DNA of 64,000 nucleotides from Sphyrna mokarran. Its lineage: Eukaryota. Positions within the stretch are counted from its first letter, which is position 1. The number at the start of each line of letters is the position of its first letter. The stretch covers positions 54,746,001 to 54,810,000 of the forward strand of contig JAGIQG010000004.1 of NCBI GenBank assembly GCA_024679065.1, read 5' to 3'. Shown here in pieces: positions 24,341-61,029 of this stretch. A program made the position numbers and the translations under genes. The notes beneath the pieces are model-generated. The model saw nothing but the letters and a program-made list of their open reading frames with translations. It did no database searches and was not told the DNA's origin.

Positions 24341-24448
24341 AAAATGATGGTGTAAACTATTCTTCATCTTTTTTTTGCTGCTCCTGCTACAAGTGATTCC
24401 AAAAGTTGCCGAAGAGCAAAATGATTACTAATAAAATGTATTTTCTTA

Positions 24449-24517
24449 CCAATGGACATAGGATGTCAAACGTCACTGCTCTAGTCTCAGAGTCAATATT
24501 CAGCAGACAATTTGCAT
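24449..24517 (+). promoter_or_regulatory. Candidate promoter of gene A: CCAAT (24449), CRE half-site ACGTCA (24470-24475), perfect octamer ATTTGCAT (24510-24517)
   Basis: Motifs read directly within 125 bp upstream of ATG 24571. Function is inferred. Confidence 0.4.
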
Positions 24518-24570
24518 AGTGGCAAACATACGGTCAGCACCGCCAGACATCAGTTGAGCTTTATCTTGCA

Positions 24571-24631
24571 ATGTTGCCAAATTTGATCTTTCTCTTCATG
24601 TTCCTGTCACTCCTGATGATCATTTTAACAG
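24571..24631 (+). CDS. VJ-C1 IgSF receptor gene A, exon 1 (signal peptide MLPNLIFLFMFLSLLMIILT)
   Basis: ATG, 20 hydrophobic codons and a phase-1 donor G|GTATTG, in frame with exon 2. Confidence 0.85.
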
Positions 24632-24816
24632 GTATTGGGATATTCTCTATCCCAAATAAACCATTTTTCCACAGTTCTCACGTCAGTTGTATTAAATGTA
24701 ATTCTATGGCTGTAATCGTTTTTTATTGCATTTCCGTGCAGAAATGTGTACCAAAGTCTCTGGTTTCACATTGAACACAGTCAATTAATATAAACCTTAA
24801 ATATATTTTCTAACAG

Positions 24817-25137
24817 GTGCTCTAGGAGCTTCAATCAGTGTGTCTCAAAGTCCTGAACAGGTAACTATATTAAGGGGGGCAAATATCACCTTCTACTGCA
24901 TAATCCCCCTTTCTCATGACAATGTGGATATCGAGGTACTTTGGTGGAAACAGGGAGAAAATAAATATATGACAAAAGGAACCGATGACAGAAAACGATT
25001 CGATTTCAAAAGTAAAGGAGGTGGTTCATTTGAGCTGCGAAACTCCACTCTCCAGGACTCAGGGATCTATCACTGCGCAGTGATCCATCAGGGAAAAAAT
25101 GTTGGAAATGGAACAGGATCAAATTTAGTTGTCTGCG
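24817..25137 (+). CDS. Gene A exon 2: V-set Ig domain with germline-joined J-like G strand
   Basis: Acceptor ttttctaacag|, donor G|GTAAGT. Reads VSQSPE..ITFYC..WWKQ..LQDSGIYHC..GNGTGSNLVV, with the canonical Cys, Trp, DxGxYxC and GxG motifs. Confidence 0.93.
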
Positions 25138-25734
25138 GTAAGTGACTGAAATTACCGGGAACATCAAGCACTTTGTTTTGCCATTGTTTTATTGTGCTGC
25201 CTTTGATATTGTAAAACTCTGTGCAAAACAGTTGACTACGCAGCGGAATGTGAGATTTTATCTGCTGTGTTCTTTCATACTGCTGGAAATACTCAGCAAT
25301 TCAGGACACGTCTGCAGAGAGGCAAAGTTAAAATCTCAGATTTAAAAATTTTTTGAGTAAAATGTTATCTGATTCAGCTCAAAATGTAATTTTTACGTCA
25401 GGTTTCTCAGCCCGAGGTTGGCCCACATAATCTCCATTCTCCAGACGGAGGAAACAACCTCGCCAAATCTATCCTGAGAAGCACATTCACAATCTTGAAT
25501 TTTCCAATGACATCACTTCATTTTAATTTTTTTCATTCTTCGCCTGCATGAGCTTCCATAAATTTATATAACCTTGCTTTTATTACCGGTTTCGGACTGA
25601 TTTTCTCTTGCGGACGCTGTTATCTGATCTATTCTTACCAGCATAAGGGAAAGCAATGAGGATATGATTCGAATCTCATTCCTTACTCTGAACATTTCTC
25701 CACCAATCTGATTTTCTCCATGTTCTATTCGCAG

Positions 25735-26046
25735 CTGCACCAATTCCGTTAAAGATTTCCGCTAAGCATCTGACAAGCAATTCAACTGCGTTCCTGAATC
25801 TTGTGTGTCAGACAGCTGGGTTTTATCCGGGTGATTTGACTCTCCTTTGGTATAAAAATGGCATCAACATCGCAACGGTAGGAAATCCGATCAAACAGCA
25901 GAACGCAGAAGGACTGTATGAAGTTTCCAGCTCTTTTGACGAGACGCAGTCTGTGCAGAAAGAAACTGTTTATATCTGCTTGGTAACTCACATCTCTCTC
26001 CGAACTCCCGCCATTGCCATTCACATAGTTAACAACTCCTGCCCAG
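25735..26046 (+). CDS. Gene A exon 3: C1-set Ig domain
   Basis: Acceptor ttcgcag|, donor G|GTATGA, 312 nt. Reads LVCQTAGFYPGDLTLLWYKNG..YICLVTHISL, with the C1 hallmarks FYP, W and CxVxH. Confidence 0.93.
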
Positions 26047-27128
26047 GTATGAGTTCGAAAGGCCAAGAAGTGTAGTTAGCAGTTTTTAAATATCAGAAAA
26101 GGTATCCGTTAGAGATTATTGACATCACTAATCATGAAGATAGTTTTAAAATAAAATACCTATTATTAGCCATTGAGTTACTTCTTATTTTATTTTTCCA
26201 ATGTTGTTTTTCTTACCCGATTTTTTAGAAAATGAAGCGTCAGTTTGTTTTATTGGACTCATGCGAAAGTGACATTACGGATCGAAATTATCTTTCTGCG
26301 GAAGCAGGGCCAATAGAAGTTAACTCTGTTTCTCTTCATAGATGCTGCCAGACCAACAGTATTTTCTGTTTTTATTTTACTTCATGCAGTGTTTTAGAGC
26401 AGGGAGGCATTTCATAAAATGCATTTCGACTTTCGCTGTGATTTGCTTCCGTTAAATATAACTGAAACTCATCTGATTAATGATAACTATTTCTGCTTAA
26501 TTAATAAACAGCCGAAATTTAATTTGGGGGTGAAAATTAAGCATTACTTTGACAGCGATCTCTTTTCTAATGCAATGACCGTCTGTAGTTAATAATTTAT
26601 TTTGTTGAATTGGAAAAAGAGCTACTCTACCAGGCTGGCAATTCCAAGTCTCAGTAATTTGCCGCGAATTAATCAAATAAGAGTGGAAGAAGCAAAGAAA
26701 ATTGAAGTTACAAAAACGTCCTTCTGTCAGACGCAATGTTAATCCTTTCACGCCAATGTTTAGAACATCCGAAATTGGTAATCTCCCTGGCAGATAATCA
26801 TGACATTGTGCCACTCTGTGAAAGTAAGTTACTTTTACTTGCAGCTTATAATGGTAAATGCCTTGGCGCTTGGAGATATGGAATATTTAGTTAGAACTGC
26901 TGTATGTAAAATGATTCGGAGATAAAAATGATCCGGTTGTTCATTTGTAGTTTTTCCACGTCAGGTCTAGAAAAATGACTTAAGGTTATTTTTAAACGTC
27001 CTTCTCATAAGGTTGTACATAGCTGCTGTAAATATGAGCAGTAGTTTACCCAATCGACTGTCATGACAGCTAAGGATCGGTAATGCAGAAACACATTAAA
27101 ACACATAACCAACTATTTTTTCTTGCAG

Positions 27129-27239: not shown

Positions 27240-28303
27240 GTAACACATAATTTTCATTCTGGCATAAATCTGCAGGACACCCTCACGTAAACCGACATGT
27301 CTCTAGAATGCAAAAGGAGGATTTTCAGTCCACCCAGACTTCATTGATTCGCTGAATGTCCTTTCTATCAAACCCCACTCCGCCGCTTTTCTCCGTAATT
27401 TTGCATATTATTTCTTTTAAGATAGCATTCGAATTCCCGCTCGAATACGTCGACCGAAATTCGTTTCAGGCTTCAACCACCCTTTGGGTGTACAAAATCC
27501 TCATGTTAATTTCTATTGCTTTGCCTAATATTTTGAAACTGTGCCCTATACTTTTTGGATGTACCTCCGAGAGCGAAGAGTTTCTCACTGGTTGCCTTGT
27601 CCATAGTCCTTAGGGCCTGGGATATCTTTATGAACTTTTCTCTCAGCCATCTAGTTTCCAAGGAAAACAGACCCAATTTAAGCAAACTATGCTCATATCT
27701 TGCTTCTTTAGAATTATTCTTGTGAATTTACTGAGCAGTTCCACACGATAACTATTCAATTAATGCTTATTTGAAGCAAAATAAAATATTTTGCTCCAAA
27801 TAAACATTAATTGAAAAGTTATAATAATATATAATAATTAAATTATATAAGCAAAATAAAATATTTTGCTCATAGTCCAGCTGAATTCAGAATGTTGTGA
27901 TGAAAGAATTGCCACAAATTGTAAAGAATCACATGATTCGGACAACATCAATGACGTTTTTAAGTAAAATGCTCTCAACGTCCTTTCCAGTCTGCTGTAC
28001 GCGAATGCTGATGAATTCATCAATGCGGATTTCACACGAAACCCGGAAAATTTAGTACCTCAAAATAACTTGATAGTAATCCTACTTGATCGGCCTCGAA
28101 ATGTGGATTGTTCACTTCAATGTAGAATGCAATTCTTTGTTATGGGATCGGAAGACGTTTCACATACTGGTCTACCTAAAAGTTTATTCCACACAAAGAA
28201 AGTAATCTCCGTGTATTATTAGTAAAATGATAATTTTAGTTTTGTTTTATCAATGATCTGTGTACTAGCATTCACAGTTACACACGTCATATTATATTTG
28301 TAG

Positions 28304-28404
28304 GGAAATGTCGTGCTTATATTACTGCAACAGTAGTTCAAAGATGTGGATTCGCAATGCCGATCAAATGGGGTAAAACTTGCAATAGGATTGTGAGAGC
28401 TTAA
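28304..28404 (+). CDS. Candidate gene A cytoplasmic/terminal exon (GKCRAYITATVVQRCGFAMPIKWGKTCNRIVRA*)
   Basis: atttgtag| acceptor in phase 1, open to TAA, at a position analogous to the gene B candidate exon at 55291. No ITIM. An alternative terminal acceptor exists at 29621 (GDEA*). Confidence 0.3.
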
Positions 28405-30459
28405 GTTCAGTTATATAACATTTGATCAGTAAAAGATTTGTCATTTGAGTGATTAGCTTAACATGTTAAGTATCGGTTTAATATACTTTGGAGCCGAAAA
28501 CTCGATTTATCACGATCAATCTGCGTGTGACTCCAATCCTACAACAGTATGACTAGCTCTTAACAGGCCTTTGATCTGGCCGTGCAAGCAGCTTACTTCT
28601 CTCCAACGAAAGATGAGAATAAATATCTGCGTCAGTGTTGCCCACGTTCAAAGAATAAATAAAACAAAATTCTGTAGTTTGACGTTTTTTTGCCTGCTTA
28701 GCATTCTTGTGCATTTTTTAAAAATGCTTCCTTTGCTGTTTAAAATAACAAATATATTCAGAGTGTCCACATAACTCAATACCCAATGAAACACCAATTT
28801 TGTGGCTCTTTAAAACAAACATTTTTCACAATAATATTGGTCCATTCTATACATTGGTTCCTGCTTGTTTAATCTATATCGTAGTATCTTGCCTTTGTGA
28901 TTTAATATCCAATGGCCTTTCCCATTACTGCTCTTCATTGACTGCTTTGCAGTCTGAATCCGGTGTCTCTTTGAATTCCATCCTAAGATGTTATCAACAT
29001 AATCAATTGCTAATTTTCTTCATGGTTGGAAAATTCTACTATTCTGTGCGCTGAATTCCCACGTCATATAAATTCCTTGGAAAGCAAAAGCATGCAAACT
29101 GACTGAATATCATGATCATGAAATGTACTTAAATTGCATTAATCCGGTTAGGTCAGAAAATGTAGCAATACTGGACCGTGAGCTGGTAAATTCTTCTAAT
29201 TTATCGAAGAAAAGATTTAATTTTCTATAAATGCTGTGGAAATGGAAATTGTTTACTACAACCAATTTCACAAAAGGTCTTTATCTCTCTTTCATGTCCG
29301 TTAAAATATTGTTTTGACGAACATTTGATACTTCTTGGATATAGGTGCAGGTGGTTAAAGAAATGCCGAAAATTACATTGGAAGTTTCATCAACACACAC
29401 AGCTATGTACTAATTACATACAATTATCGGTGCGTTGCTTTTGCAAGTTGGCATTGCATGTCGAAGATGTTGAGATGGACTCGAATTGTGCTCTATCTAT
29501 AACACTGCAGTGTATTGAAAATCGATAGAATGAAATGTCAGTTACAATAGGCACCCGAATTTCCATTAACGTTGACACATCAATATGTGTATTCACTGTG
29601 GTTGATGCATTTTTTTTTAGGTGATGAAGCATAACACGCTTGCGAGAGCATTGAGAAGGTTAATGTTGTAGCAATGCGCCGCTTGTGTTTTTGCTATATT
29701 AACAATTGTTGCGAAATATGTACCGCAGGGGCGGGTTTATAAAACTAAATAAAGAAAATGCTCATTAGTCATCTCGCTGCGGTAGTGTTTTCTTTAATTT
29801 AGATGTGAATGATTACAACATTAAAATGCATTTAGTGTTACTATCAATATAATGCCAGCAGTTCTGCTTACTTGCAGAAACAGACAATGTTTGGATTAAA
29901 CGGAAATTCTACACCATGTTTTCCATTGTAAACCTTTCTAATTCACGAACAAATGGAAGCTTCAGCCGGCTCGCTTTAAGACCATGAATTTTCCTAATCT
30001 TCTAATTTCTAATATAATGCTACATGTATGAGCATGTTCTTAAATATATTTTTAGGTTATTTCTTTATTTCTCTATACATATCTATTAGCATTTATCTGC
30101 TAAACTTGTGACATGTGCCTTTGTGTAACTCACTGAAATGTTGCAATGATGATGATCAAATTATAGGTAAGTAGGATTGCAAGTAACTGGGAGCACAACC
30201 ACTAGAAAGTTCCTTTTCAAGCCATTCACCATTTGGATTTAGAAATGCATCATCGTTTACTCTTGTCGCTAGGTCAACATCCTGAAACTCACTCCATTGC
30301 AGCTCTGCAGGCATGCTGAACCTGCAGTGCTTTCCTAGGATAGCTCATGGTCATCTCAGAAGTCGCTGGCGATGAGCAGTAAATGCTTGCCGAGAAAGAG
30401 ACATCCAAAGCCAAAATCAGATGCGTTTTGAAGTCTGCAATTAATATATGGAATCCCTA

Positions 30460-30890
30460 TTGTGCAGAAGGAGGCCAAACGGCCCATCAAGTCTGCTTCG
30501 ACTCTCCGACAGGGCATTCCACAGACAGTCACCCAAGGCCAGAATCAAATCTGGTCCCCGGACATTGTATTAACCACTGTGCCAGCGTTCCGCCTTTTCC
30601 CAAACGGCAAAAACAAAAATGTGACGGGGGACTGGGCGGCAAATTGGCACTGTGGTTAACATTGCTGTCGCTCCGAGCCAGGGAACAGGATTTGATTCCA
30701 GGCTTGGTGTCACTGTTTGCACGTTCTCCCGGTGAGTTTCCTCTGGGTACTCTGGTTTCTTCTCACAATCGGAAAGCTGTGCTGGTTAGGTATGGCTTAA
30801 TTCTTCCAACAGGCATCAGCGTGTGGCGACACCAGGATATTCACAGTAATTTCATTGCGGTGTCAATGTAAGACTATTGTGACTAATAAA
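30460..30890. mobile_element. HE1/V-SINE-like fragments (one minus, one plus)
   Basis: gtgcagaaggaggcc..cagtcacccaaggccagaatcaaat..taaccactgtgcc (minus), then gggcggc..tggcactgtggttaac..gttctcccc..ggtttc (plus). Confidence 0.65.
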
Positions 30891-31199
30891 TTATCTTTCC
30901 TTTTTAAACTTGTGGGAGGAAAGTGGTGCACCCAGAAGAATTCCACACAGATAGAGGGAACTCCACACATACAGTCACTCCCAAGTCCGGAAATGAAACG
31001 GGTCCCTGGCGCTGCGAGACAGCAGAAACATTACATAGAAACGAGAAGCAGGAACAGGCTTTCGACCCTTCAAGCCTGCTTTGCCATTCATTGTGATCCT
31101 GACTGATCTTCAAATTCAATATCTTGATCCCAACTTTCCCCTGTACTCCTTGATCTGTTTAGCCCTAAGAGCTATATCTAATTTATTCCTGAAATTACA

Positions 31200-33780
31200 T
31201 ACGTTATTTGGTGTTTATTATAGACCCCCAGATAGTCAGCAGGAAATTGGAGAGCAAATATATGTGCAATTGTCAGAGAGGTTTAAAAATGATAAGAGAG
31301 CGATTATATTAGGTGATTTCAATTTTCCCAACATTAATTGGGATAACTACCATGATAAAGGCTTAGACGGAGCAGTTTTCTTAAAATATATTCAGGAAAA
31401 CTTCTTAGGTCAATATGTAAAGGATCCAACGGGAAGGAGCTATGTTGGACTTAACTCGGGGGAATGAAGCCAGACAAGTGGTCGATGAGCTGGTAGGAGA
31501 GCATTTTGGTGATTATGACCACAACATGATTCAATTCAAAGTTGTTATGGTCAAATAAAGTGACATGCTGCAGAAAAAGGTTTTCTTTTCGAGGAGAGTA
31601 GATTTTAACAGAATTAACAAGGATCTGGCAAAAGTAGATGGAAAAATATAAGAAGGGAAATGTACAGAAGATCAGTGGGGGGTATTCAAAGATGAAATGG
31701 GGTGCGGTACATACCCAATATGTTCCCTTATATGTTCCTGTATGTTTGTTATAGGAAAGTATAACAAATCCAGAGAACCACGAATGACCAGAGGCATTAA
31801 GAATATAATAAGAAGGAAAATACAGGTTTTAATAAATATAAGGGGAATAAGCTTGCGGAGGCACTAGTGGAGCATACAAGATGCAGGATACTCCTTAAAA
31901 AAGATCAATTACAAGAGCAAAGAGGGATATAAGAAAGCTCTGGCTGGTAAAAGGAGGGGAAATCCTATGATATTTTATAATGGAAAGAGATAACCATGGA
32001 AAGAGTAGTGCGCATTAGGGACCAAGGGGAAATCTGTGGATGGAACCGGGTGTTAAATGAATATTTCATATCTATTTTCACCCGCGAAAATAAGGATGTA
32101 GTGTTGGATCTCGGAGAGAAAGACACAGGCGTTAGAGAAAACAGGGAGGGACAAAGTATTGGATGTAACTGGAGTTATACAACTCCAGTTCCGGTTGAAT
32201 TGTGACTCAGGTTGCTGTGGGAGGCAAGGGAGGAAATTGCAGGGGCTCTGACCCAATTTTTTAATTCCTCCCTGGCCACCGAGCAGGTGCCAGAGCTCTG
32301 GAGAACAGCTAATGTGTTCCCACCATTTAAGAAAGTTTGCAGAGACAAGCCAGGAAACGATGAACTAGTAAGTCTTATGTCTGTGGTTGGGAAATTACTG
32401 GAGAAGATTCTGAAGGACAGAATCTACCTCTATTTGGAGAGGCAAGGTTTGATCAGAGGGAATCCAGCATGGATTTGTCAGAGAGAGGTCATGCTTAACT
32501 AATTTGCTTGTTTTTTTTTTGAGCATGTAACCAAGTGTGTGGTTGAGAATAGAACGGTTGATGTAGCTTGCATGGATCTCAGCAAAGCCTTTGATGAAGC
32601 CCCACGTGGGAGACTTTAAGAACACTAATGCACATGGGATACAGTGCGGTTTGACAAGGTGGATTCATAATTGATTTAGCGGTAGGAGATAGAGAGTGGT
32701 GACAGATGACTGCTTTAGTGACTAGAGGCAGCGATCAGTGGCGTTATATAGGGATCTGTGCTAGGCCCTATTGTTCGTAATTTATATAAATTACATAGAT
32801 GACTATGTAGGAAGTGGGATCAGTAAGCTTGCCAATGAAGCAAATATTGGTTGGATAATTAACAGAGTGTCTTGGGTGACATGATATATATATATAGTAT
32901 ATATATTTTTACATGAGATGGTCAAATGTGCTGTTAAGTGGTGGATGGAATTTGACCCTGAAAAGAGTGAGATGATGCACTTTGAACGGAGTAATTTGAC
33001 AAGGAAGCATGAGACGAAAGGTCCGACACTGGGAATTTTTGAAGAACAAAGGAACCTTGGAGTCTTTGTCCATAGATCTCTGAAGGTGGTAAGACAGGTT
33101 AATAGACTGATGTAAAAGATATATGACACACTGGCCTTTATCAGTTGGGGCATAGATTGGAAAATAGAGAGATCATGATAGAGTTGTATACAACTTTGGT
33201 GAGGCCACAGCTGTAGTACTGTATGCAGTTGAGGTGGTCATATTATAGGAAGGATGTAAATGTACTGGAGGGGGTGCAGAGGCAAATTACCAGAATGTTA
33301 CCTGGGATGGAACATTTATGTTATGAAGAGTGGTTGGATAAGCTTGAGTTGTTTTCGTTGGAACAGAGAAGACTGAGAAGCAACCAGATTGAGGTGCTCA
33401 AGATTTTGAGGGGCATGGACAGGGTAGGTATGGAGCAGCTGATCCCCTTAGTTGAAGAGTCAGCTAAGAGTGGACACAAGTTAAAAGTGAGGGATGGGAG
33501 ATTTAGGGGGGATTTGAGACAGAACTTTTTTTACTCAAAGAGTGGTGACTGTCTGGAAAGTACTGCCTAGAATGGTGGTGACGTGGGAGGCCTCACATGC
33601 TTTAACAAGTATGTGGATGTGTACTTGGCACGCCATAATATTCAAGGCTGTGGGCCAAATGCTGGCAAGTTGGATTAGGTGGGCAGGTAACTGCACTTCA
33701 TGCACCAGTGCAGATTCGATGGACCAAATGGCCACATCTGCGCTATAATATTCTGTGATTCTGTTACTCTGTGATTCTAC
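31200..33780 (+). mobile_element. Degenerate CR1 LINE (EN-RT-tail) inserted in the older CR1
   Basis: GVYYRPP, ILGDFNFPNINW, LWEAREEIAGAL, WMEFDPEKSEMMHF and TRMLPGM motifs, plus a (ctgtgatt)n-like tail. Confidence 0.9.
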
Positions 33781-34729
33781 GAATGACACAACATTTTGGT
33801 CTCAACTCGTTCTTGTGGTAGTGAATTCTATATATTCACCACTCTGCGCGAAGATAGTCTCCTCACCTCAGTTCTAAATGGTTTATCCTCAAACTATGAC
33901 CCCTAGTTCTGGACTAACCCACGACCACAGAAATTAGAAATCATAGAAGTCATAGAAATCACATTCTGTCTGAATCTACCCTATCTAACCCTGTTGGAAT
34001 CTTGAAGGTTTCAATGCGATGTTCTCTCACTCTTCTAAATTCCAATGAATTCACTCATAACCTACTTAGTCCCTCCTCACATGACAGACCTGCCATCCTA
34101 CTGATCAGCCTGGTAATATTTACTGTATTGCCTCGATAGCAAGGATATCTTTCCTTAAGTAAGGAAACCAATACTGTGGCCTCACCACACCATACACATT
34201 TGCATAAATAAATGAATTCTTATCTTGAAATCATCTCGCTATGGAGGCCAACATGCCATTTGACTTCTTTACTGCTTGCTGCACCTACACGAGGACACCA
34301 AGCTCTCATTGATCCACATCTCTCAATTTATACCCATTCATGTAACATTCTGTCTTCCTATTATTGCTAAAGTGAAAAAGCTTCACATTTATCCACATTA
34401 TACTGCATCTACCATATAGAAACCCATACAGTTAACCTGTCTAAATTGCGCTGAAGCATCTCTGCATTGTCCTCGTAGCTCATCCTCCTACCCAACTTTG
34501 TATTATCTTCAACTATGGGAATAATACATTCAGTTCACACTTTTAAATCAATAATACATGATAGGAATAGTTGGAACCTAGCAGAGATGCTTGTGGTGTC
34601 CCATTAGACACTGTCTGACAATCAGAAAAAGACCCACTAATGTCAATGTTTTGCTTCTTATATGCTAACAAGTTTTCAATCCATCTCAGGATGTTACCTG
34701 CAATATCCATGAGCTTTAACTTTATATTT

Positions 34730-35970
34730 GATTTGATTGATTTGATTTGATTTATTATTGTCACATATACTAACACACAGTGAAAAGTTTTGTTTCTTTC
34801 ACGCTATACAGACAAAAACATATCATTCACAGAAGGAAACGAGAGGGTATAGAATGTAGTGTTATACTTATACCTAGAAAAGATCAACTTAATGCAAAAT
34901 AAGCCCATTCAAAAGTTTGACAGCAGCAAGGAAGAAGCTGTTCTTGAGTCTCCGACTTTTGTATCTTTTTCCAGAAGGAAGAACGTGGAACAGAGAATGT
35001 CTGGAGTGCACGGGGTCCTTAATCATGCTGGCTGCTTTGCCAAGGCAACGGGAAGTATAGACAGATAAAATGGATAGGAAGCTAGTTTGCATGATGGATT
35101 GGGTTTTAATCATGATTTTTTGCAGTTTCTTGTGATTTTGGGCAAAGCAGGAGCCATACCAAGTTGTGATACAACCAGAAAGAATGCTTTCTATGGTGTA
35201 TTTGTAAAAGTTGGTGAAAGTTGTAACTGACATTCCAAATTTCCTTAATCTTCTGAGAAAGTAGAGGCGTTGGTGGGCTTTTTTTTAACTGTAGTATCGG
35301 CATGGGAGGGATCAGACTGGGTTGGTGGTGATCCGGACACCTAATAACTTGAAGCTCTGAACTCTTTCTGCTTCATCCTCGTTGATGTAGAAAGGGTTAA
35401 TTCTCCTTTAACAATCACAATCTCCTTCATTTTGACACTGAGGTGGAGATTATTGTTCCTGCACCAATTCACCAGATTCTCCAGCTCATTCCTATACTCT
35501 GTCTTGTCATTGTTTGAGATCTGACCCACTACAGTGGTGTTGTCAGCAAACTTGAAAATGGAATACAGTGGAATTTAGCCATACATCATAGATATATAAG
35601 GAATATAGTAGGGGCTGAGAACACAGCCTTGTGGGAAAAGAACAAAGCCAGTTGACCTTTTCTAGCTATAAGTGTTGAAGATGATCGTGGATGAAGTGCT
35701 GTTGCCCATCCTTACTGATTGTAGTCTGGTCTGTGATTTAGAAAGTTCAGGATCCAGTTGGAGAGGGAGGTGCAGAGACCCAGGCCACAGAGTTTCGAGG
35801 TGAGTTTCGTGTGAATAATGATCTTGAAGGCTGTGATATAATCAATAAACAGATGTTGACATAAGTATGCTTGCTATCTAGATGTTCCAGGTTTGAGTGC
35901 AGGGCCAGGAAAATGGTATCTGCTTTGGACCATCTGCAGCAGTGTGCAAACTGTAGTGGATCCAGGTAAT
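34730..35970 (-). mobile_element. Rex/Babar-like (CR1-clade relative) LINE fragment
   Basis: Minus-strand ORFs read LDPLQFAH..ADTIFLALHSNLEHLD, GQISNNDKTEYRNELENLVNWC and ESILSGCITTWYG..LPSGKRY..RLKNSFF. (tttga)n tail at ~34730. Confidence 0.8.
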
Positions 35971-37014
35971 CTGCTTTATGAGACAATGTCGAAAGCCTAC
36001 TGAAATTCTAAATAAGCCACATCCACTGGTTCTCTTCAATCAACTCTACGAACTACAACTTGAAGTATTCCAATTTTCCTTTTGTAAATCCACGCTGACT
36101 TAGCTATGCCAGGTGAAGGATATGTGAAGGGCTGAAACATGGATTTCTTGGAAAGATGTACAGAAATTTGAAGGGGCAAACACGTTCATGAACTTTGGAG
36201 AGACAAAGATGTTGGAAACGGGATAGTGGTTTCTGAAATGTAGGGAGGGAGGATTGATCATTTATGGAGACGGATTATGTCAGCCTATTTACATAGGCTC
36301 TATGTACATATTTCATATTTCTCTATATACATAGAGAACTGGCAACATTATCAGCTGAAAACAGATAGCAAGAATACAGGCTTGTGTTATCATCAGTGTA
36401 GTCAGAATAGAGTCAAGAATATAGGAGGTTGGCTTCATGATGAACTCGAAGGCAACAAGTGGAGGGGCTGGAAGGAAAGTGGAGATTAATGTGATTTTAG
36501 GGCTGTGGTGAAGGGTACGGTGGGGTATGCACTCCTTAGAGGTCATTTGCAGAAATAGGGGAGTGAATGCGACAGAGACAGCTGAGCAGATATTTTCAAG
36601 TTTAGTTCATGCAATCCCCTTACTTGTTGTAGGCGATGGTGTATGAGAGGAAATAAAGGTTTATGGAGACTGTTTTGCAGTAGACAAAGCGGTCAGATAA
36701 CATTGCATTTTGGGTGACTCACGAAAATAGAATCGTTTTAGTAGAATGCAGTAGGAACAGTTGGTTCTTTATGTGGCTCACAGAGATCAGGCGATCAACA
36801 AACAAACCAGTTTAGTTATATTGCTTTGTATTGATTTGATAATTATAATCCAGTTGCGATCAGAGAGTATTAAAAACCCATGTTATTTCATGCTAATAAG
36901 AGTTTGATACAGATATATTTGCATTGACAGCCGACCATCTAATTATATTGGTGCTGCGTAAAGTTTGGGCTGTATATCTAAAGATACGTATGCTTGCCAG
37001 CTCAAAAATAAAGT

Positions 37015-37577
37015 GGACCCTATTTTACCATTTTGATTCCAGGTGCTAGGCTTGAAACTGGGGATGTTTCAGATCCGACTTTTGAGACTGTTCCATACGC
37101 ACACTGCCTGCAAAAATATCAGCGAGCATTATTCTGCGAGTATCAAACTTATGGGTGGGCATTAATGCACCTAAACCAGACGTGCCCTTCCCCTCCCCCC
37201 CCCACCCGATCTCCACCTCTCAGTAGAGAGCAGCAGGACGCTTGACATCTATCCCCTCACTAACTGTAGCGCCCGAATTGGGCTTTCATGGAGCATGTCT
37301 GTTTGGCGCCGATTCTGGATGGGCGATAGAGGTGGTAAAAGGAGAGGTGCCGGTAGAGTTTGACGTGCTGCCCATTAAGTTGATTTAAATGTATGCATAC
37401 GCGTTTCAGTGCCTGTCGGGCCTATTTTGGGCACGGTCTTAATTGTGGCCATTTTCGCACCTTGGTTAAGGGGGGACTGGTGCACAAGCGGGTGCGGATC
37501 ATGCTACTTGCCTCACGCCCGACTTTACCAAGTTTTGCGCCTGAAACTGGATGCAATGTGATGGTAAAATCGAGCCC
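37015..37577. mobile_element. MITE with 16-bp terminal inverted repeats
   Basis: Left end ggaccctattttacca versus reverse complement of the right end gggctcgattttacca (13/16 match). GC-rich interior. Confidence 0.7.
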
Positions 37578-37599
37578 ATCGATTGAATAAAGCTATGTG

Positions 37600-38790
37600 G
37601 GTAGAACTTAGAAATAATAAAAAAGTGATATTGCTAGCTTTTTTTATGAACACCAGATAGTCAGTTGGAAACTGAGGAGCTAAAATGAGATCAATATGTA
37701 AATGCGAGTAAAAATAATAGCAAAAAGGTAATTATCGTAGGTGATTTCAACTTTCCCAACATTAACTGGGATAAACATTGCGTAAAGAATATGACTGGAT
37801 TTCTTGAAATGTGTAGAGGAGAACGTTAGACCAATAGAAGAGCGTCCAAAAAGGGAAGGAGCTGTGCTGGGCCGAATTCTGGAGAATGACGCTGAAAAGA
37901 TGTTTGAGATGGGGATGGGTGGTGGGGAGTGGTGAGGGGTGGAGGGATGCGCGGGGGGGGGGGGGGGGGGGGGGGAGGGGTGGAATCATTTTAGCGATAG
38001 TGACCATAACATGGTACAATTCACTCATGATATGGACAAAGAATCACACAACTTGCAAAAAATGTTTTTAGTTTGGGGAGAGCAGAGTTTAACGACATGA
38101 AGCAGAATCTTGCCAAAGTAGACAAGGAACAGCTACTATAAGAGAAATCTACAGAAGTGCACTCGGGTATTCAATAAGGACATAGAAGAGGGGAGGTAGT
38201 ACAAGTCCAACACGTTCATTCTAGAGTGATAAGAAAAAATAGCAACCCCAAAGAATCATTGATGACCAAACATATTCAGGAAAAGGAAAATAAATGCTTC
38301 GAGCAGGGAAAAGACCAAATTAGCAGAAACGAAGTATCAACGAAGTATTAGTGAAGAAGAGAACGTGCAGGGCAGACTATAAGAAAGCAATTAGAAAAGC
38401 TAAAAGTGAATATGTGAGGGCTTTGGTTTGTAAAAGTAGGGAAAATCCCAACACATTCTATAAATATATGAATGGGAAGAGGTTAACCAAGCAAAGAGTA
38501 GTGTCTGTTCCAGAGCAAGGGGCCCATCCATGTGTAGAGCAAGAAGATATTGGCAGAGAGTTCAAACGATACTTCACATCTGTCTTCACCAAGAGAATGA
38601 GGATGAAGGTATGGAGCACAGAGGGAAAGACTGTAAGGTTCTTGAGCAAATTGACACAGGGAAAACAAGGAACTGGAGGTATGACAGTTTAAATGGGTAC
38701 AAATTGCCAGATCCAGATGAATTGTGTCCCAGGCATTCGTGGCAGGCAAGAGAGGAGTATTCTGAGGTTCTGCTCCAATTACTGTCATGA
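37600..38790 (+). mobile_element. Degenerate CR1 LINE fragment (EN to linker)
   Basis: IIVGDFNFPNINW, SDHNMVQF, YKKAIRKAK..ENPNTFYKY, YFTSVFT motifs. Confidence 0.8.
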
Positions 38791-38862
38791 GAGAATATTA
38801 ATTCGAAGTTTCTTTTTAGATAGCGCCCAAATTAAATTCCCAGCATCATTTTAATTTTGCAG

Positions 38863-38972
38863 GACCTCATGTTAAATAGCATTGCATTTGGGTTTCTTGT
38901 ATTGCGGTGGGTAGATTGGCTTTTCTGATATTCGCGGTCATAGTTGGGAGAGATTCTGTCTGAAGAATACAG
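38863..38972 (+). pseudogene. Disabled transmembrane exon paralogous to exon 4 of genes A and B
   Basis: Acceptor ttttgcag|, donor AAGAATACAG|GTAGGT (gene A: AAGAATAAAG|GTAACA). Reads GPHVK*HCIWVSCIAVGRLAFLIFAVIVG. It is 110 nt versus 111 in gene A, so it has an in-frame TAG and a net 1-nt frameshift. Confidence 0.7.
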
Positions 38973-40011
38973 GTAGGTACCCATTTACACATTCGTTTTT
39001 AATGCAAATTTTCATGGGATCCCAGAGATCGTGATCGGTGGTGATGTAAGCGTAAGGATTGCGCAATTGTCACTTATTGGATGCAAGAAAAAACCGATAT
39101 CGTGAGCGGCCAGTGGGACTGGTTTTGTAATGTAGTCACAGCCTCAAAATTGGAATTTAATGAATCTGATTATTTGTGCATTACATTTGATAATGTCTAT
39201 ATTCTGGCAGATCGTAAATCCTGTCAGTGTCCAGATGGAGAAGATTTATAATTCACTTAAAATCTGAAAATCTGACATTAACAAAATATGAAAAATCTGA
39301 GGACTGGCACAAAATATCTCGTAACTGTTCAATGTCCTTTGCAGACGGAGACACTTCAACGCGGCCTGAGCTATGTGTGATTCCAGTCCGACAGAAGTAT
39401 GCTCAATTCTTAAACAGCCTCTGATGTGGTCACGCAAGCCATTTAGTTGTATCTGGCTAACGACAGCCAAGATGGACAGCAAATATGCTTATCTGGGGCA
39501 CCGACGTCTTGAAAATGAATGAAGCAAGATAGCAATTTAACTTTTCGGTCTGGTTGATATTCTCACCTAGTTACATAAGCAACACGATCGAGCTGCCGTT
39601 TTCCAGGCTAAAGGAACACATTTATTCTGAGTTTCTACATGATGCATTACCCCGATAATGAATAATCACTTATTTACCTCTTTGAACGAATGTTTGGGTT
39701 TTGTCATTAATGATTAAAATTGTATTTCGTTGTGCGGTGGACTAGAACATCCCACAGTTCGCTTATTTCCTTGTATTACGCACTAAGTCATTGTTAATTT
39801 GTATGAAATGGACATTCTATGTAGTCTGCCAACCAAATGCATAGTTGTTTTCAGTTTCACCATCACTAATATCAATAGAATCCAAGGAGCATTTTTTCCA
39901 CCCCCGCTGTGGCTTGCGTCCGCATGTGTTTTTGTGCGTGTTTCTGTGAGTGTCTGTGTTTGCGTAATTGTGTGCGTGCGTTTTTATCCAAGTGTGTTAA
40001 ATTTTATCTAG

Positions 40012-40097
40012 CCTCTAAAAATACTTTTGAAGGTACAATTATGGAAAGTGACTCAAGATCGTCAGCATTGAAAGGAGTTAATCTGCTGACTTTCCAG
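40012..40097 (+). CDS. Candidate cytoplasmic exon (ASKNTFEGTIMESDSRSSALKGVNLLTFQ), phase 1/0
   Basis: ttttatctag| acceptor and CAG|GTAAAC donor. The phases link a phase-1 TM exon to the ITIM exon at 40982. Confidence 0.5.
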
Positions 40098-40314
40098 GTA
40101 AACAAGATAGTGCAATAATAGAGAACACTGGTGACAAGCTGGTGTTTTTTTTTGTATAGATGTTGTTATAATGAAGATATTTCGTCGCGGTCCACTTAAC
40201 TATCGGCATTTTTCTCTTATCGATGTTTTCTGACATTGTATTTTGGAAATATTTGATGCTTGCTAGGATGCTGCTGAAGGTTGTTGAAAAACGGAAAATG
40301 AAAGGGAAAATGAA

Positions 40315-40660
40315 GGCACCAGAGTAGTTAGCATTGCTGCCTCACAGCTTCAGGCACAGGGTTCAATCCCAGCCTTGGATGACTGCATAGATGGAGTTTG
40401 CATGTTCTCTCCGTGTCTGCTTAGTTTCCTCCCATAGTCCAAAAATATGCAGATTAGGTAGATTGGTCATGTTTCATTGCCCCTTAGTGCCCAAAAATGA
40501 GTAGCCTAAGTGGATTGCTCAATTATCCCTAAGTGTCAAAAGGTGTGTAAATTAGATGGATTAGCCATGATAAAAGTATGGGGTAAGGGTAGGACGGGGA
40601 CAAACGGAGTCAGATATTCTATCAGACAGTCGGTGCATACTCTTCTGCATGTATGGATTC
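40315..40660 (+). mobile_element. HE1/V-SINE-like SINE
   Basis: ggcac..gtagttagcattgctgcctcacagc..gggttcaatccc..ggagtttgcatgttctc..tttcctccca.. Confidence 0.8.
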
Positions 40661-40981
40661 TGGTAGCTTCATTAACATACAACTATGTAATAGTCATATG
40701 TCGGACAATCTAAAGATTGTTTTTCGGAGCTGAGATTACTGCTTAAAATGTGAAAATCTACTTTGTCTACACGCATCAGTAAGCACATATAGGCAGGATG
40801 AAATATAAGTTCCAATTGACACCTTAATTACGGACGCATCGTTAAATATATTCACGGTAAATTTTGTATTTAGGATGTAGCCCATGTTCCATTTATGTTT
40901 ACTGTTTAATCAGCAATTTGTATTTTGGTGACGCCAATTAATTTACCAGGTAATGAAATGTGTTCGTTGTGTCACACGCAG

Positions 40982-41161
40982 AAAAATCAGGACAAAGTTG
41001 TGACATATGCCGCAGTGAATTTGAAAATGTCCACTAAAACTCGAAGACATAAAGCTGAAGAAAATGTGACAGCGCATGTTCAGATGCGTCTGAAAATTAG
41101 AGAAGAAAAAGTATCGAATACCTGCGAAGAGCCAATAATAATGAAATTGCGGAGTACTTGA
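40982..41161 (+). CDS. Terminal cytoplasmic exon with ITIM (KNQDKVVTYAAVNLKMSTKTRRHKAEENVTAHVQMR...ST*)
   Basis: cacacgcag| acceptor in phase 0. Canonical ITIM VTYAAV at 41000-41017; open to TGA at 41161. May be a pseudo-exon. Confidence 0.6.
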   Translation, partial: KNQDKVVTYAAVNLKMSTKTRRHKAEENVTAHVQMRLKIREEKVSNTCEEPIIMKLRST

Positions 41162-51313: not shown

Positions 51314-51412
51314 GTATTTATTATAGTTCACACCTTGTCTTTCCGTCTGTGTCTCGCTCTCGCTCTGTCTTTTTTATATATAACTAAAACGAGTGTTCAT
51401 TTTCTTTCATAG

Positions 51413-51730
51413 TTGCTGCTAATCCTCTGATTGAAGTGACTCAGTCCCCTGAAAATATCAATTCGATAATCGGGGCTAATGTTGCATTCGACTGCACGTT
51501 TCCTACTTCTCACGACAGTTTAGATGTGAACTTTCATTGGTGGAAACTAGGCGAAAAGGATTTGATGCGGCCAGGATCAGATAACAGGAAATGGTTTGCC
51601 ACTGGGAATGGGAGAGCCTCCTTTCAACTTCTGAATATCAGTATTCAGGACTCTGGAGTCTATTACTGCGGAGTGACACTTCAGGGAAAATGGGTCACAA
51701 ATGGCAGTGGATCAACCCTCGTCGTCCGTG
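51413..51730 (+). CDS. Gene B exon 2: V-set Ig domain with germline-joined J-like G strand
   Basis: ttttctttcatag| acceptor, G|GTAAGA donor. Reads VTQSPE..VAFDC..WWKL..IQDSGVYYC..NGSGSTLVVR. Confidence 0.93.
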
Positions 51731-52667
51731 GTAAGAGAAGTGTTAAGACGATAAGCTGCATAGTCTCAAGGTTACTCAAATAAACAACAAAGATTCGCAT
51801 CCCTTCAGAGTTCGCTTGGCCGATTTTTAAATAGTTACATTGGAAATTAATTGCTCCAATAGAAAGATTGGAGTCATGAAACAAAGATACTCTTTTTACC
51901 GTCATACTTGTTTGGTAATCATTACTTCTGCTCTTTCATGCGTTCAACCTGCACAAAAAAATGTTTTCAGTTCATTGAAATGTGGATGCAGATTGTGAAA
52001 CAACTTGAATTAATTTATGCACAAGTAATATTTCGAATAGTTTAAAACAGTGCTTATTAGCAAAAAAGATACATGTATTCTTATTGAATCCAATTATAAT
52101 CAGAACACAAGTCATACTCTTCCGCTTTGAAGCGAATGTATATATAGAGCAGGTGGTGTTTCCAAGAGTTTTACAAGCGTACTTCTGTTTTAATGTACGA
52201 TTTCCAATTCAATACAAGAGCAACTCCAAATGCTTCACCCGTTTTCGAGTTCTTCTACCTATTCATCCAAACAGAAAAATCTAATTTCGAGAATTTATAT
52301 AGGGAAGGATAAAATTGCGCCCAGTTCAAAAGATCTGGAATGCTCGTTACAAGTAGATTCAGTAGAAATTAAAAAGGAAATTTTATATGCATTTGAAGTA
52401 GAATACTTGCTGCACTGGAGTAAGAGCCGAGACGTGAAATTAATTGCTTATTTCTTGCATAGAGCCACCGCAGATGCAATGAACCGACTGGCATTCTTTA
52501 TACTCTATGATGCAACAATCTACAATAATTACAGAGCGATTTTTAATTCCGCTAGTAATAAACAGATTGATAGCTCTTTGAGCTGTCTTAGCTCAAATTG
52601 AATAAAAGTGAATGCCACTCTGAAGAATTTACGGTATATATAAATTCATTTTTCGATCTTTCGCCAG

Positions 52668-52979
52668 CTCTTCCAACTCCCATGAAGATTCTTCCCCGCG
52701 CATCTGCAAGCAATGTACCTGATTCTTTGATGCTTGTGTGCGAAATGGCTTCATTTTACCCGGCGGATCTAACTATCACTTGGTACAAAAATAATGAAAG
52801 CATTGAGAATGGAATTCATACCATCAAACAACTCAGCAAAACTGGAATGTTTGAAGCTTCCAGATGCTTTGAAGAGACACAACCTGTCCAGGGAGGGACT
52901 GTTTATACCTGCCTAGTTTCTCATGCAACTCTCCAGATTCCGGCCATGGCAACTTACGTAGTTCCCAATTGTAAACCAG
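52668..52979 (+). CDS. Gene B exon 3: C1-set Ig domain
   Basis: ctttcgccag| acceptor, G|GTATGA donor, 312 nt (same as gene A). Reads LVCEMASFYPADLTITWYKNN..YTCLVSHATL. Confidence 0.93.
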
Positions 52980-54304
52980 GTATGAAATCAGTTTTCTTGG
53001 AAAAAATGACAATGAAGTAAAATCTAACGTCGTTGAAAGTGAATGGATTGTAAATTTCAGCGCAGGGGCAACGATGGCAATAAAATGTAAACTATATTTA
53101 TAAAATCAGGTCATTATTTAAAGTATTGAAATGTATTCTTTGTTTCCACTGCCTTTGCTTTTCCATTTTCAGGCCGAGCAGCTCCTCGGAATAGAGACAA
53201 CTTCTTAAATCGAAGAAACTTCCACTTTTGGTCGGGAGTGAAAAGCCGGTCTCGGTTGGACCGCGTTATTTATATTGCCAGATTTTACTTTCAATTTATT
53301 GTACAACCAAATTTGCATATTCGCGCAATGCAATTGCATCTCAACAGCTCAGTAAATACTGAAACCCAGAAAATGTTGTTTTCACAAAATTCATTTCCCT
53401 CACCGGTTCAATTTAATTCATCAATATTGTATATTCAAACTGCGTTCATTATCTGCCAAATTCCCACTTCAACTCATAATTTAGTGCCTCCCCATTGTAA
53501 TCACAAGTGGATTTCTCTAGTCCGGCGCAGATCTGAGACTTGGGTTAGAGTTCTTCATCCTGAAGTGGCAAATGGAAATGAATCCTTGACGGCTCTGTGG
53601 CAAATGTATATCTTAACATTTTCTGTGTTGGCGATTTTTAGTGGAATGGAAAACGTGTTCAACTAAAATTCTGTCTTCTGGTTATCAAATACTTGTTGCA
53701 TATTTAGCTTTCTTGAAATAATGCCAGAAATGGATTGAAATTGAAATGGTGCGTTGTCACCGTAGGTAAAGTTTTACACTTACATTTTGTGGAGAAAATT
53801 AACAAGCGTAGACTTACATAGAGAGAAATCCTTAACATCAAGAAGCACTGATGCAACTCCAGACAATGCCAAGGAGGAATTAATACTTGAATTACCTAAT
53901 CTAGTAAAACAAAAGAAATATTTTATAGCAACGATAGTAACCAAGTGTGAAAAAAAAACTGGGACTAAGTATCGGTGAGGCGATAGTTAAAATAATTTTC
54001 CCATTCTGCCCACCACGGGAATTGTAGCTGGCAGGGGGCGGGAGGTCTGTTAACCCCGGCTGGGATTTTCCGTTTTCCGGGCTAACTCAAACTGAAAATT
54101 TTCGCCCCCTGAAATTCGTCTTGAGCGACAGCGCAAATTGGCCGACAACTAATCAGTGGCAGTTGCTGTAATCTCCTGATTACCTTTTAGTTTTCTACAG
54201 GTTAAATGATGCAATGTGTCACTTACCCATCCCAACATGCAACGCTTAGTTTTAAATAGCGGAAAATGAATTTTCAACAAAAAAAGATATTCTGATTCCC
54301 CAGT

Positions 54305-54645
54305 ATGAACAATTCGGCATTTCTCGGCAAATTAGCCAGCATAATTAAAGATCTCTCGCACCCCCACCATTCTCTCTTCCATCCTTTTCCATCAGGAAAA
54401 ACATACAAATGTCTGATATCAAGTTCCAACCGACTCAAAAACAGCTTCTTCCGTTCTGCGATCAGACTTTTGAATGCACCTAGTTTGCATTAAGTTGATC
54501 TTTCTCTACACCCTAGCTATGACTATGACACGACATTCGGCGTTCGCTCGTTTCCTTCTCTATGAATGGTATGCTTTGTCTGTATAGCGCGCAAGAAGTA
54601 ATACATTTCACAGTATGCTAATACATGTGACAATTATAAATAAAA
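54305..54645 (+). mobile_element. Rex/Babar-like LINE 3' fragment in gene B intron 3
   Basis: LGKLASIIKDLSHPHHSLFHPFPSGKTY..RLKNSFFRSAIRLLN; same family as 34730-35970. Confidence 0.8.
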
Positions 54646-54736
54646 TAGAATTCTTCAATATTGGGATCTCTTTGCAGTTGTGACTGCAGATGACACTTGC
54701 ACAGCTCTAAGTTTGAAAGTTTTGTCAATCTTTCAG

Positions 54737-54856
54737 GTCGTGACAGCATCTCATCCTCATCTTACTTACGGATTTTTGGGTGCATAGGCTTCGCATTGAT
54801 GGTTTTGCTACTGTTGATCATCATGAGAATCTTGTTCATATTGGGCAACCCTAAAG
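54737..54856 (+). CDS. Gene B exon 4: connecting peptide and transmembrane (GRDSISSSSYLRIFGCIGFALMVLLLLIIMRILFILGNPK)
   Basis: atctttcag| acceptor, AAAG|GTAGGA donor, phase 1/1, strong hydrophobic helix. The YLxIxxC motif is shared with the gene A TM exon. Confidence 0.85.
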
Positions 54857-57684: not shown

Positions 57685-58078
57685 TTGAAAAGGATAAAGG
57701 AGGATCTCATTTAAACTTACAGAATATTGAAAGACCTGTAAATGATGGATGTGGGGAAGATGTTTGCATAGGTAGGAGAGACTAGGATCCAATGACACGG
57801 CCTTAAAATAAAGGAATGGCTCCAAAGAACTGAGATGAGGAGGGATTTCTTGAACCTGAGGGCAGTATTGCATAGAATTCATTGCAACAGGAGCTTGTGA
57901 AGTCCAGGTCATTGGGTATATTTAAGACAGAGATGGATAGCTATTGCTTGATGATGGGTTCATAGGTTATGGGTAAAAGGCCAGAGAGTGGGGTTTATAA
58001 ACTTGTCAGTCATGATTGAATGAAGGAACAGAATTAGGCCGAATGGCTTCTATATTCTATGGACACCCACAATTCATG
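57685..58078 (+). repeat. 394-bp direct duplicate of 60075-60468 (CR1 3' end plus flank)
   Basis: Near-identical by eye (~6 mismatches). ORFs 57604..57912 and 60000..60302 share the same peptide. Confidence 0.9.
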
Positions 58079-58489: not shown

Positions 58490-60451
58490 GCATGCTAAGA
58501 GGAAAGCGAGGCAACCATGACTAAGGACAGAAGTCAGGGGAATTAAAGCATACAATGTGACGAAGATTAGTAGGGAGCCATCGGATTGAGAAGTCTTCGC
58601 CAACAAAGGATAACTAAACAAGTAAAAAGGGGTAATAGATGAAATATGGGTATAAGCTACTAGTGATGTAAAAGATGATTGCAAGAGGTCTTTTTTAGAT
58701 AAATAAAAGTTGAGAGTGGGCAATGGGCCATTGGAAAATGAAGCCGGAGAAGTAATAATGGGGAACAAATAAATGCTGAAGGATCTGAACAGGTACTTTG
58801 CATCAGTTTTCAGGACGGAAGACAGCAATAACGTTAAAAAATTCAAGAGAGTCAGAGGGCAGAGTTGAGTATTGTGGCCATTACTAAAGAGAAGGTGCTC
58901 GCGAAACTGGAAGGTCTGAAGTTCGGTGGATTTCCTAGGCCAGATAAATTGCACACAAGAGCTCAAAGGAGCTAGCTAAAGAGGTAGTGAAGTTATTAGT
59001 GGTGATTGTTTAGATATCAATTCAATCAGGGAGGGCCCCAACGGACTGGGAAATCGCTAATGTTGAACAAGGGAGGCAAAAAAATGGGAAATTTCAGACC
59101 TATTAGCCTGAACTCTATCGCGGGCAAGATTTTAGAGTCCATTACTTGAGATAAGATTTTGGAATATTTGGAAATGCATGGTAATATGTGGTGAAATCGG
59201 CATGATATCATCAAGTGGTGGTCATGCCTAACAGGTATGTTTCAATTCCTTGAGCAGGCAACGAACAGGTTAGACGAAGGACAGCCACTTGATGTTATCT
59301 ACTTGGATTTCCAGAAGGCCTTTGATAATTTGTTACACAGGAAGCTGCTGAGTACGATACGAGTCCATTGTATTAGAGAAATGTACTATTATGGATAGAA
59401 AATTGGCTAACTAGCCAAAGGCAGAGAGTGGGAAAAAGAATCCTTTCCAGGATGACAGCCGGTGGCTATAATTCAACACAGTTCAGTGTTAGGATCACAT
59501 CTTTTCGCTTTCCACATCAATATCTAGATGAAGTAAGTGAGGACACTGTGCCTAAGTTTGCAGATGGTACACAGGTAGGTGGAAGGACTGGCAATATTGA
59601 GGAAACAGGGAAGCTGCAGAAGGACTTAGATGGGTTAGGAGAGTGGGCAAAGAAATGGCAGATGGAATAGAATGTGGAAATGTGATGTTATGCATCATGG
59701 TTGAAAGAATAGAAGCTTAGACTATTTTCTAAATGGGAGAAAATTTATGAATTTTGAAGTGGAAAGGGACTTGGGAGTCCCAGTTCATGATTAGATCAAG
59801 TTTAACTTGCAGGTTGAGCTAGTAGTTAGGAAAGCAAATGCAATGCTAGCATTCCTTACGAGAGGACTAGATACAAAAGCAAGGATTATTGCTGAGGTTT
59901 TATAAGACTCTGATCAGATCATATTTGGAACATTGTGAGCAATTTTGGGCCCTGTATCTAAGAAAAGATGTGCTGGCTTGGAGAGTGTCTAGAGAAGGTT
60001 CACGAATGATCCCAGAAATGAAAAGCTTGATGGATGAGGCGCATTTGAGGACTGTCAATCTGTACTCGATGGATTTGAAAAGGATAAAGGAGGATCTCAT
60101 TTAAACTTACAGAATATTGAAAGACCTGTAAATGATGGATGTGAGGAAGATGTTTCCATAGGTAGGAGAGACTAGGATCCAATGACACAGCCTTAAAATA
60201 AAGGAATGGCTCCAAAGAACTGAGATGAGGAGGGATTTCTTGAACCTGAGGGCAGTATTGCATAGAATTCATTGCAACAGGAGCTTGTGAAGTCCAGGTC
60301 ATTGGGTATATTTAAGACAGAGATGGATAGGTATTGCTTGATGATGGGTTCATAGGTTATGGGTAAAAGGCCAGAGAGTGGGGTTTATAAACTTGTCAGT
60401 CATGATTGAATGAAGGAACGGAATTAGGCCAAATGGCTTCTATATTCTATG
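58490..60451 (+). mobile_element. Degenerate CR1-type LINE (RT and tail), inserted after a family-A SINE fragment (~58300-58480)
   Basis: YFASVF, NFRPISLNS, YLDFQKAFD, KFADGT, WAKKWQME, YLEHCEQFW motifs with many lesions. Confidence 0.9.
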
Positions 60452-61029
60452 GACACCCACAATTCATGAACAAATTTTTAAATATCTGATGTTTTTGGAT
60501 TGCAAAGATCTATTGTGCTGTAATAATTGTCTTTAACTGCAAAATCATTAAAGGGTGATCCACAATCAATTCGTGTACGATTGAATATTTAACTAACTGT
60601 GTTATACTTAACCAATAAGATACATCCTTTCATTTTGTGGAGTAATTGCATGGTACGAGACAGCTATGTGTGGCGGACATTCTGTGTTGGACAAAATCCT
60701 TCCTGTAATTAAACAAATTGGAATCTCAAGAAGCTTAACAACGAGAAACCTCCCCGAAGCTGCATGCGAATTTAACTGATGGTCTTATTCTGCTTTGAAC
60801 ATTAGAAGTAAGCACTTTCAATCTGCTCGAACCAAAAAGATATCCCATCAACAATAGAGCTGTCAATCTGAATCCATCTTCAGACCAAACAGCAGTAGTC
60901 CAGTAAACTGTGATCGTAAGCTGGAGCTGGAGAGAAGGAGGGAACAGTAGAGAGAAAAACAAGTAAAAGAATGAAATCATTAACACTCAGCGATCAGTTT
61001 GGATTCACATTCTTGCTGGAAGTGTAAAC

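Follow-up and report, generated by a model that had tools for sequence, protein, structure and literature searches.

The window, a 64,000-nucleotide stretch of one contig of the shark Sphyrna mokarran, contains part of a cluster of immunoglobulin-type receptor genes. Coordinates are given here as window positions; sites before the window on this contig have negative values, and adding 54746000 to a value gives the genome position. As listed in Table 1, the window contains a short-tailed gene (gene A), a LINE fragment, the back half of a long-tailed receptor that lacks leader, V and C1 exons (the orphan), and a further gene (gene B). Over the 464 kb of contig that we examined the cluster contains 12 V-C1 pairs, and the genome has at least 37 matches to the V domain (37 listed of 103 candidates), with all of the listed ones residing on the cluster contig. 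These listed matches fall into three patches, near 50.2, 54.2-55.0 and 62.4-63.3 Mb, and none of them has an internal stop. The V exon codes for a V domain plus a J-like GxG motif (it ends GNGTG...) in a single exon that is followed by a C1 exon, and the genes are thus of the VJ-C1 type.

Annotated relatives of these genes are the RefSeq ‘SIRP-like’ models from Mustelus asterias (XP_078067246.1, long; XP_078067247.1, short) and from Scyliorhinus canicula (XP_038662970.1, long; XP_038662022.1/023.1 and XP_038662972.1, short). The shark models and the cluster share the order leader-V-C1-TM, with the long forms having a 14-residue first tail exon and VTYAA, and the short forms having an Arg-type TM segment. 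The shark models are all intact, unlike the orphan, which has no leader, V or C1 exon and a dead TM exon. Note that in the annotated tail of the Mustelus long form the segment with two tyrosines is repeated in tandem, giving four tyrosine motifs.

Table 1. Coordinates of the features in the window.
Feature	Position	Strand	Remarks
Gene A leader exon	24571..24631	+	ATG, GT donor, open with V-C1-TM; 45/61 nt identical to C' leader
Gene A V exon, joined VJ type	24817..25137	+	Pfam V-set E 1.6e-10; 316/321 nt and 106/106 aa identical to C'
Gene A C1 exon	25735..26046	+	Pfam C1-set E 9.9e-11; 295/312 nt identical to C'
Gene A TM exon, short-tail type, Arg at start of membrane segment	27129..27239	+	91% to Mustelus short form, 44% aa to C'
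Gene A probable own last exon and 3' end (predicted)	27991..28660	+	Homologous to six-residue end of Mustelus short form; AATAAA at 28618, 28654
Inferred junction interval between duplication units	37033..37582	.	A''-block homology stops at 37033; pre-C'-block homology begins at 37582
LINE fragment, 3' side cut off	37582..38784	+	Positional paralog of LINE in front of C'
Junction of inferred ~6.4 kb deletion (promoter, leader, V, C1)	38781..38788	.	Crossed by contigs of 4/4 other organisms
Orphan dead TM exon, long-tail type	38863..38972	+	TAG 38877-79, 1-nt loss near 38949; 82/106 nt identical to C' TM exon
Orphan intron 3' end, taken for an exon in the earlier note	40012..40097	+	No counterpart in annotated proteins; 69/86 identity to C', intron-like
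Orphan true first cytoplasmic exon	40098..40141	+	44 nt, phase 1 to 0, open; donor GTGTTT vs GTGGGT in C'
Orphan last exon	40982..41161	+	Open; first motif VTYAAV kept; second tyrosine gone (TAHVQM vs TAYAEV in C')
Gene B	51411..54856	+	V 51411-51731, C1 52668-52979, TM 54737-54856; middle gene of duplicated unit

Structure of the orphan and its intact twin

An earlier note on this DNA described the orphan as a dead TM exon followed by two cytoplasmic exons, with no V or C1 exon upstream. The TM exon is indeed disabled, having an internal TAG and a 1-nt loss that leaves it with 110 nt versus 111 nt in gene A, and its AG/GT ends are intact. Its proposed homology to the gene A TM exon was confirmed by an alignment test (score 163, reached by 0 of 2000 dinucleotide shuffles; z 7.6). 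The orphan exon is however closer to the TM exon of C', an intact gene described below, than to that of gene A (score 285, z 18.1), and its likeness to the gene B TM exon is not significant (score reached by 90 of 2000 shuffles).

The first of the two proposed cytoplasmic exons had to be corrected, as 40012-40097 is the 3' end of an intron and the true exon is 40098-40141. This exon reads KQDSAIIENTGDKL and matches the 14-residue segment that follows the TM segment in the annotated Mustelus and Scyliorhinus long-tailed proteins. Because of this match, the CAG/GT at 40095-99 is read as an acceptor plus exon start and not as a donor. The open frame across 40012-40097 means little, because five segments that start at an AG and run to 40097 have an open frame in this phase, and the C' counterpart of this segment holds a stop. 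We considered that this TAA might be a premature stop in C', and rejected this since the annotated proteins place it in an intron. The last exon, on the other hand, is as the note had it, being open and bearing the ITIM VTYAAV. Its second tail tyrosine is kept in C', Mustelus and Scyliorhinus and is gone in the orphan. Protein searches with this exon returned no matches, a weak blank as the query is just 59 residues long. Splice dinucleotides are intact on all three orphan exons, and AATAAA-type signals are located downstream at 42143 and 42513.

The absence of V and C1 exons upstream was also borne out. Across 27240-38862, neither tblastn with 15 V and C1 domains from the cluster (best E 0.079) nor nhmmer with eight exon sequences (best E 0.74) detected a remnant of V, C1 or leader; the positive control, a region containing gene B, gave E values of 1e-17 to 1e-71.

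Genome searches with the TM exon, with 40060-40200 and with the last exon each returned two matches from two candidates, namely the window itself and C'. This twin is located 73 kb upstream of the orphan on the same contig (G000:C993:54707705-54714351; window-relative -38295 to -31649), with its leader at -38295, V at -38044, C1 at -35901, TM at -34167 and tail exons at -32944 and -31813. C' is open over 336 codons with canonical splice sites throughout and is the counterpart of the annotated long forms, just as gene A is the counterpart of the short forms. Its tail contains VTYAAM, which ends in Met and so departs at +3 from the ITIM consensus, followed by an ITSM-like TAYAEV. The latter fits the ITSM form TxYxxV/I (PMC11599192). 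C' is thus intact, and from its sequence it is predicted to be of inhibitory type.

Probable tandem duplication, front-end deletion and decay

Self-comparison of the contig revealed two collinear units, LINE-C'-B'-A (approximately -41200 to 37033) and LINE-orphan-B-A'' (37582 to approximately 87100), with blocks that align at 71-83% identity. B' is a twin of gene B that is located upstream of the window. The V and C1 exons of B (51411-52979) and B' (-24373 to -22031) are homogenised as well (dS 0.09 for V and 0.075 for C1, with flanks at ~80%), and B' may be decaying, as judged by loss of the second C1 cysteine and of one V codon and by an altered C1 acceptor. A'', located at window-relative 80125-80235 and 80863, 25 kb behind gene B, is another back half that lacks the leader, V and C1 exons, having lost this block by a clean 3.76 kb deletion. 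The A'' TM exon and its last exon of six codons have open frames, with the TM exon identical to that of gene A at 97 of 111 nt versus 81% for the flanks (p 0.13). As an alternative TM module, A'' is a better candidate than the orphan. Also present behind gene B is a 394 bp direct repeat (57685-58078 and 60075-60468, 98.5% identity) that is far younger than the surrounding duplication.

The LINE allows the missing front end of the orphan to be placed. Related LINE elements carry RVT_1 and endonuclease domains, and the best non-self genome match of the LINE piece at 38556-38775 is the LINE before C', by a modest margin over the next genome copy (187 versus 166 bits; 40 of 1109 candidates scored). 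This LINE stands before the C' promoter in the first unit and directly before the orphan TM intron in the second. The match to the LINE ORF ends at 38784 in the orphan unit, with the C' copy continuing through the rest of the frame, and homology to the intron that precedes the C' TM exon begins at 38788. LINE insertions are normally cut at their 5' end. The 3' cut seen here thus points to a later deletion of ~6.4 kb, which likely took the promoter, leader, V and C1 of the C' copy. The earlier note had offered as its first option a paralog with deleted ectodomain exons, and had held that a V/C1 remnant would favor it. The search for such a remnant came up empty, the deletion being clean, and yet this option is supported by the intact twin 73 kb upstream, by a junction that can be placed and by the presence of this junction in other organisms.

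Several results bear on whether the orphan is real and on its age. A contig from the best-matching DNA run (X1), a run that may be the assembly's own sample, has 0 differences over 38584-40352. Contigs from 4/4 other organisms cross the LINE/TM junction, with one doing so at depth 2; on the LINE side, one of the four junction contigs aligns over 30 letters and also has loose letters that resemble LINE sequence. The frameshift site shows no gap in 3/3 other organisms with contigs that cover it, and no difference is listed at the TAG in 4/4, with 1-4 differences per contig being unlisted. A second contig with C'-like loose ends was also observed in 3/4. Comparison of the locus among organisms, which the earlier note had proposed, thus shows the junction and frameshift to be common to them, and because of this the duplication, deletion and frameshift should predate splits of ~10% sequence divergence. 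The region is repeat-rich and duplicated, conditions under which a mis-join or false duplication in the assembly has to be considered. However, an artefact of this type is implausible in the extreme given that the copies differ by ~20%, that the X1 contig is identical and that the junction is crossed in four other organisms.

We consider it highly probable that the orphan is a non-processed pseudogene derived from tandem duplication of a three-gene unit followed by front-end deletion and then by frameshift, stop and drift. Specifically, a unit composed of C' with its long ITIM tail, B', and A with its short tail would have duplicated in tandem. The C' copy would then have lost ~6.4 kb comprising its promoter, leader, V and C1, and the beheaded copy would have taken a frameshift and a stop and drifted since. 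That an open twin with the missing front end lies 73 kb upstream makes a dead duplication leftover the likely identity of the orphan. It has an intact paralog with the same exon-intron layout (introns align at 79%), disabling lesions and neutral exon divergence, which are features of a non-processed pseudogene.

A different arrangement of events is suggested by the leader-V-C1 block of gene A (24372-26160), which is homologous to C' such that gene A plus the orphan resembles C' with 12.6 kb inserted. Here the gene A V-C1 would be the original ectodomain of the orphan, and a short-tail TM module would have inserted before the long-tail TM exon. We regard this as very unlikely. Both flanks of the gene A V-C1 (13631-22692 and 26452-37033) are collinear with the A'' block, which places this V-C1 in its own short-gene context. 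Furthermore, the LINE from the front of the C' promoter lies after gene A, just before the orphan TM exon, and Mustelus has the same short gene (TM exon 91% identical) beside a separate long gene.

The pseudogene reading is also in line with how the orphan diverges from C'. Identity is 248/312 in exons (79.5%) and 1130/1423 in introns (79.4%; Fisher p 1.0), and the tail exons alone have an identity of 0.806 (p 0.78 versus introns). The point estimate of dN/dS relative to C' is 1.57 over 68 synonymous sites; a ratio near 1 is weaker evidence of decay than usual since these receptors evolve fast. The two outgroups have the same state at 59 sites, of which 18 are changed in the orphan and 11 in C'. 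Relative rates gave a mixed result, with 25 orphan-specific versus 11 C'-specific changes when Mustelus is the outgroup (p 0.029), and 16 versus 14 when Scyliorhinus is (p 0.86). Counter to plain decay, the tail exons are still open, AG/GT ends are present and the canonical VTYAAV is retained where C' has VTYAAM. In neutral simulations from C' (20000 runs each, with rates taken from the flanks), the tail remained open to the first motif in 21% of runs, open with this motif in 13%, open to the second motif in 10% and open over all 54 codons in 5%. The simulation treats the copy as free of selection ever since it arose by duplication, and because of this it probably understates the chance of an open tail.

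The surviving splice dinucleotides of the three exons and the AATAAA-type signals at 42143 and 42513 would also suit an orphan that is transcribed from the LINE or by read-through, giving rise either to a non-coding RNA or to a short ITIM protein that acts as a decoy in the cytosol. Such a role is more improbable still than the insertion of a TM module, as the orphan lacks sequence constraint and the LINE piece is old and broken.

Gene A and its predicted pairing with C'

The second option of the earlier note was that gene A once had alternative TM/tail modules and that its TM exon could still be spliced to 40012 for an inhibitory isoform. The splice target named is not an exon, and as a history of gene A the proposal is not supported, long and short forms being separate genes both here and in the two annotated sharks. 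A last exon of its own is moreover predicted for gene A at 27991, and two AATAAA signals follow at 28618 and 28654, ~10 kb before the orphan. A candidate last exon at 36854 (score 19 versus the Mustelus tail) was set aside in favor of 27991, where six residues match allowing for one extra base. Compared with the Mustelus and A'' versions, the start of the exon at 27991 has one additional base, which would give a tail of 21 instead of 6 residues; the A'' counterpart is in frame, and both last-exon candidates for gene A are predictions. Read-through of the TM donor would alternatively give a 3-residue tail like that of the Scyliorhinus short forms. Between the TM and predicted last exons there is also a 75 bp A+T-rich palindrome (88%) at 27748-27822.

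Even with the history corrected, the dead gene could have been co-opted as a tail, with the gene A TM exon skipping its own last exon and splicing to 40098 and 40982 to form a receptor with an Arg-type TM segment and an ITIM. The phases fit (27239 is phase 1; 40098 is phase 1 to 0), both tail exons are open, as occurs in 5-21% of neutral simulations, the canonical VTYAAV is kept, and isoforms with opposite tails are known in NKp30 and NKp44 (PMC6514059). We nevertheless judge this splicing to be unlikely. Gene A has its own conserved predicted last exon and two AATAAA signals 11 kb before the target, the tail exons are conserved no better than the introns, the second tyrosine is lost, the 40141 donor is further from consensus than in C', and a receptor that combines this V domain with an ITIM tail is already available in C'. 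It is equally doubtful that one locus makes both a short activating form and an ITIM form, which would amount to a paired receptor rebuilt from a dead neighbor.

The preferred reading of the orphan as a pseudogene leaves gene A and C' as the pair of interest. Their ectodomains are nearly identical within one cluster and homogenised beyond their flanks, with dS values of 0.075 for V and 0.088 for C1 versus 0.60 for the leader and with 77% identity in the leader-V intron. Gene A has an Arg where the long forms have a Gly, and C' has a tail with ITIM-like and ITSM-like motifs. V-C1 identity is 94-98% within species and 71-85% between species. A tree of eight ectodomains groups these by species (A plus C' 100/99, the Mustelus pair 90/89, Scyliorhinus 97/99), whereas a tree of nine TM segments splits the long from the short type, with support of only 90/87. 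We therefore predict, from comparisons of sequence, that gene conversion keeps the A and C' ectodomains alike, and that the working system is a predicted pair composed of an inhibitory C' (ITIM-like plus ITSM-like) and a short-tailed A. By analogy with NKp30 and NKp46 (PMC6514059), gene A likely activates via an adaptor through its TM Arg.

Homogenisation of paired receptors by gene conversion is described for Siglec-5/14 (PMC4042635) and for Xenopus CEACAM pairs (PMC5112662). A/C' shares with them ligand-binding exons that are almost identical and have few synonymous changes, tails of opposite type, location in one cluster and the presence of broken or fused copies, and differs from them in its Ig architecture of a joined VJ plus C1. 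Conversion among CEACAM genes is tied to opposite gene orientation (PMC5112662), whereas A and C' have the same orientation and are 63 kb apart.

Family placement and significance

When compared with solved structures, the Scyliorhinus long form matches SIRP alpha best (E 8e-18), followed by UrIg2 (2e-17) and SIRP gamma (1.5e-16). The SIRP ectodomain is V-C1-C1, whereas A, C' and the annotated relatives each have a single V exon and a single C1 exon. Mammalian SIRP genes neighbor NSFL1C, a SEP-domain gene, and PDYN. SEP-domain matches (two genes) are located on other contigs (C668 and C1326) than that of the cluster (C993), and a search of the genome for the opioid-peptide family gave no match anywhere and so is uninformative on SIRP synteny. 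NCBIfam assigned 0 families to three shark proteins. Despite the RefSeq label, we do not file this family as SIRP, given that the genes have one C1 and that UrIg2 matches about as well.

There is likeness to SIRP alpha/beta in having a long/short pair and a joined VJ domain with GxG (PMC11599192), and SIRP is placed under Tetrapoda (PMC13262535). A joined VJ exon is also reported for NKp30, for PRARP and for UrIg (PMC11599192, PMC10751288, PMC12227049). UrIg has more C domains than the cluster genes and NKp30 is without a C1, and the accessible parts of the papers on UrIg/UrIg2, NKp30 and PRARP (PMC12227049, PMC10751288) describe no multi-gene paired cluster. Our literature search found no paper on this shark cluster, with most subscription journals and supplements, which may hold gene lists, falling outside its scope.

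If gene A did splice into the orphan tail, this would be a clear case of exons from a dead paralog being reused to switch receptor signal, and A'', in which the TM and last exons are open, would then provide a parallel. As a pseudogene fragment, the orphan is ordinary birth-and-death debris. In the second unit, precisely the leader-V-C1 block has been lost from both members of the pair, and this may reflect chance or selection against extra copies. The value of the orphan is as a marker, in that it shows an old tandem duplication of three genes and leads to C', an intact gene of predicted inhibitory type. Through C' it also leads to a long/short pair, A and C', with V domains that are predicted to be kept alike by gene conversion, as in two other sharks.
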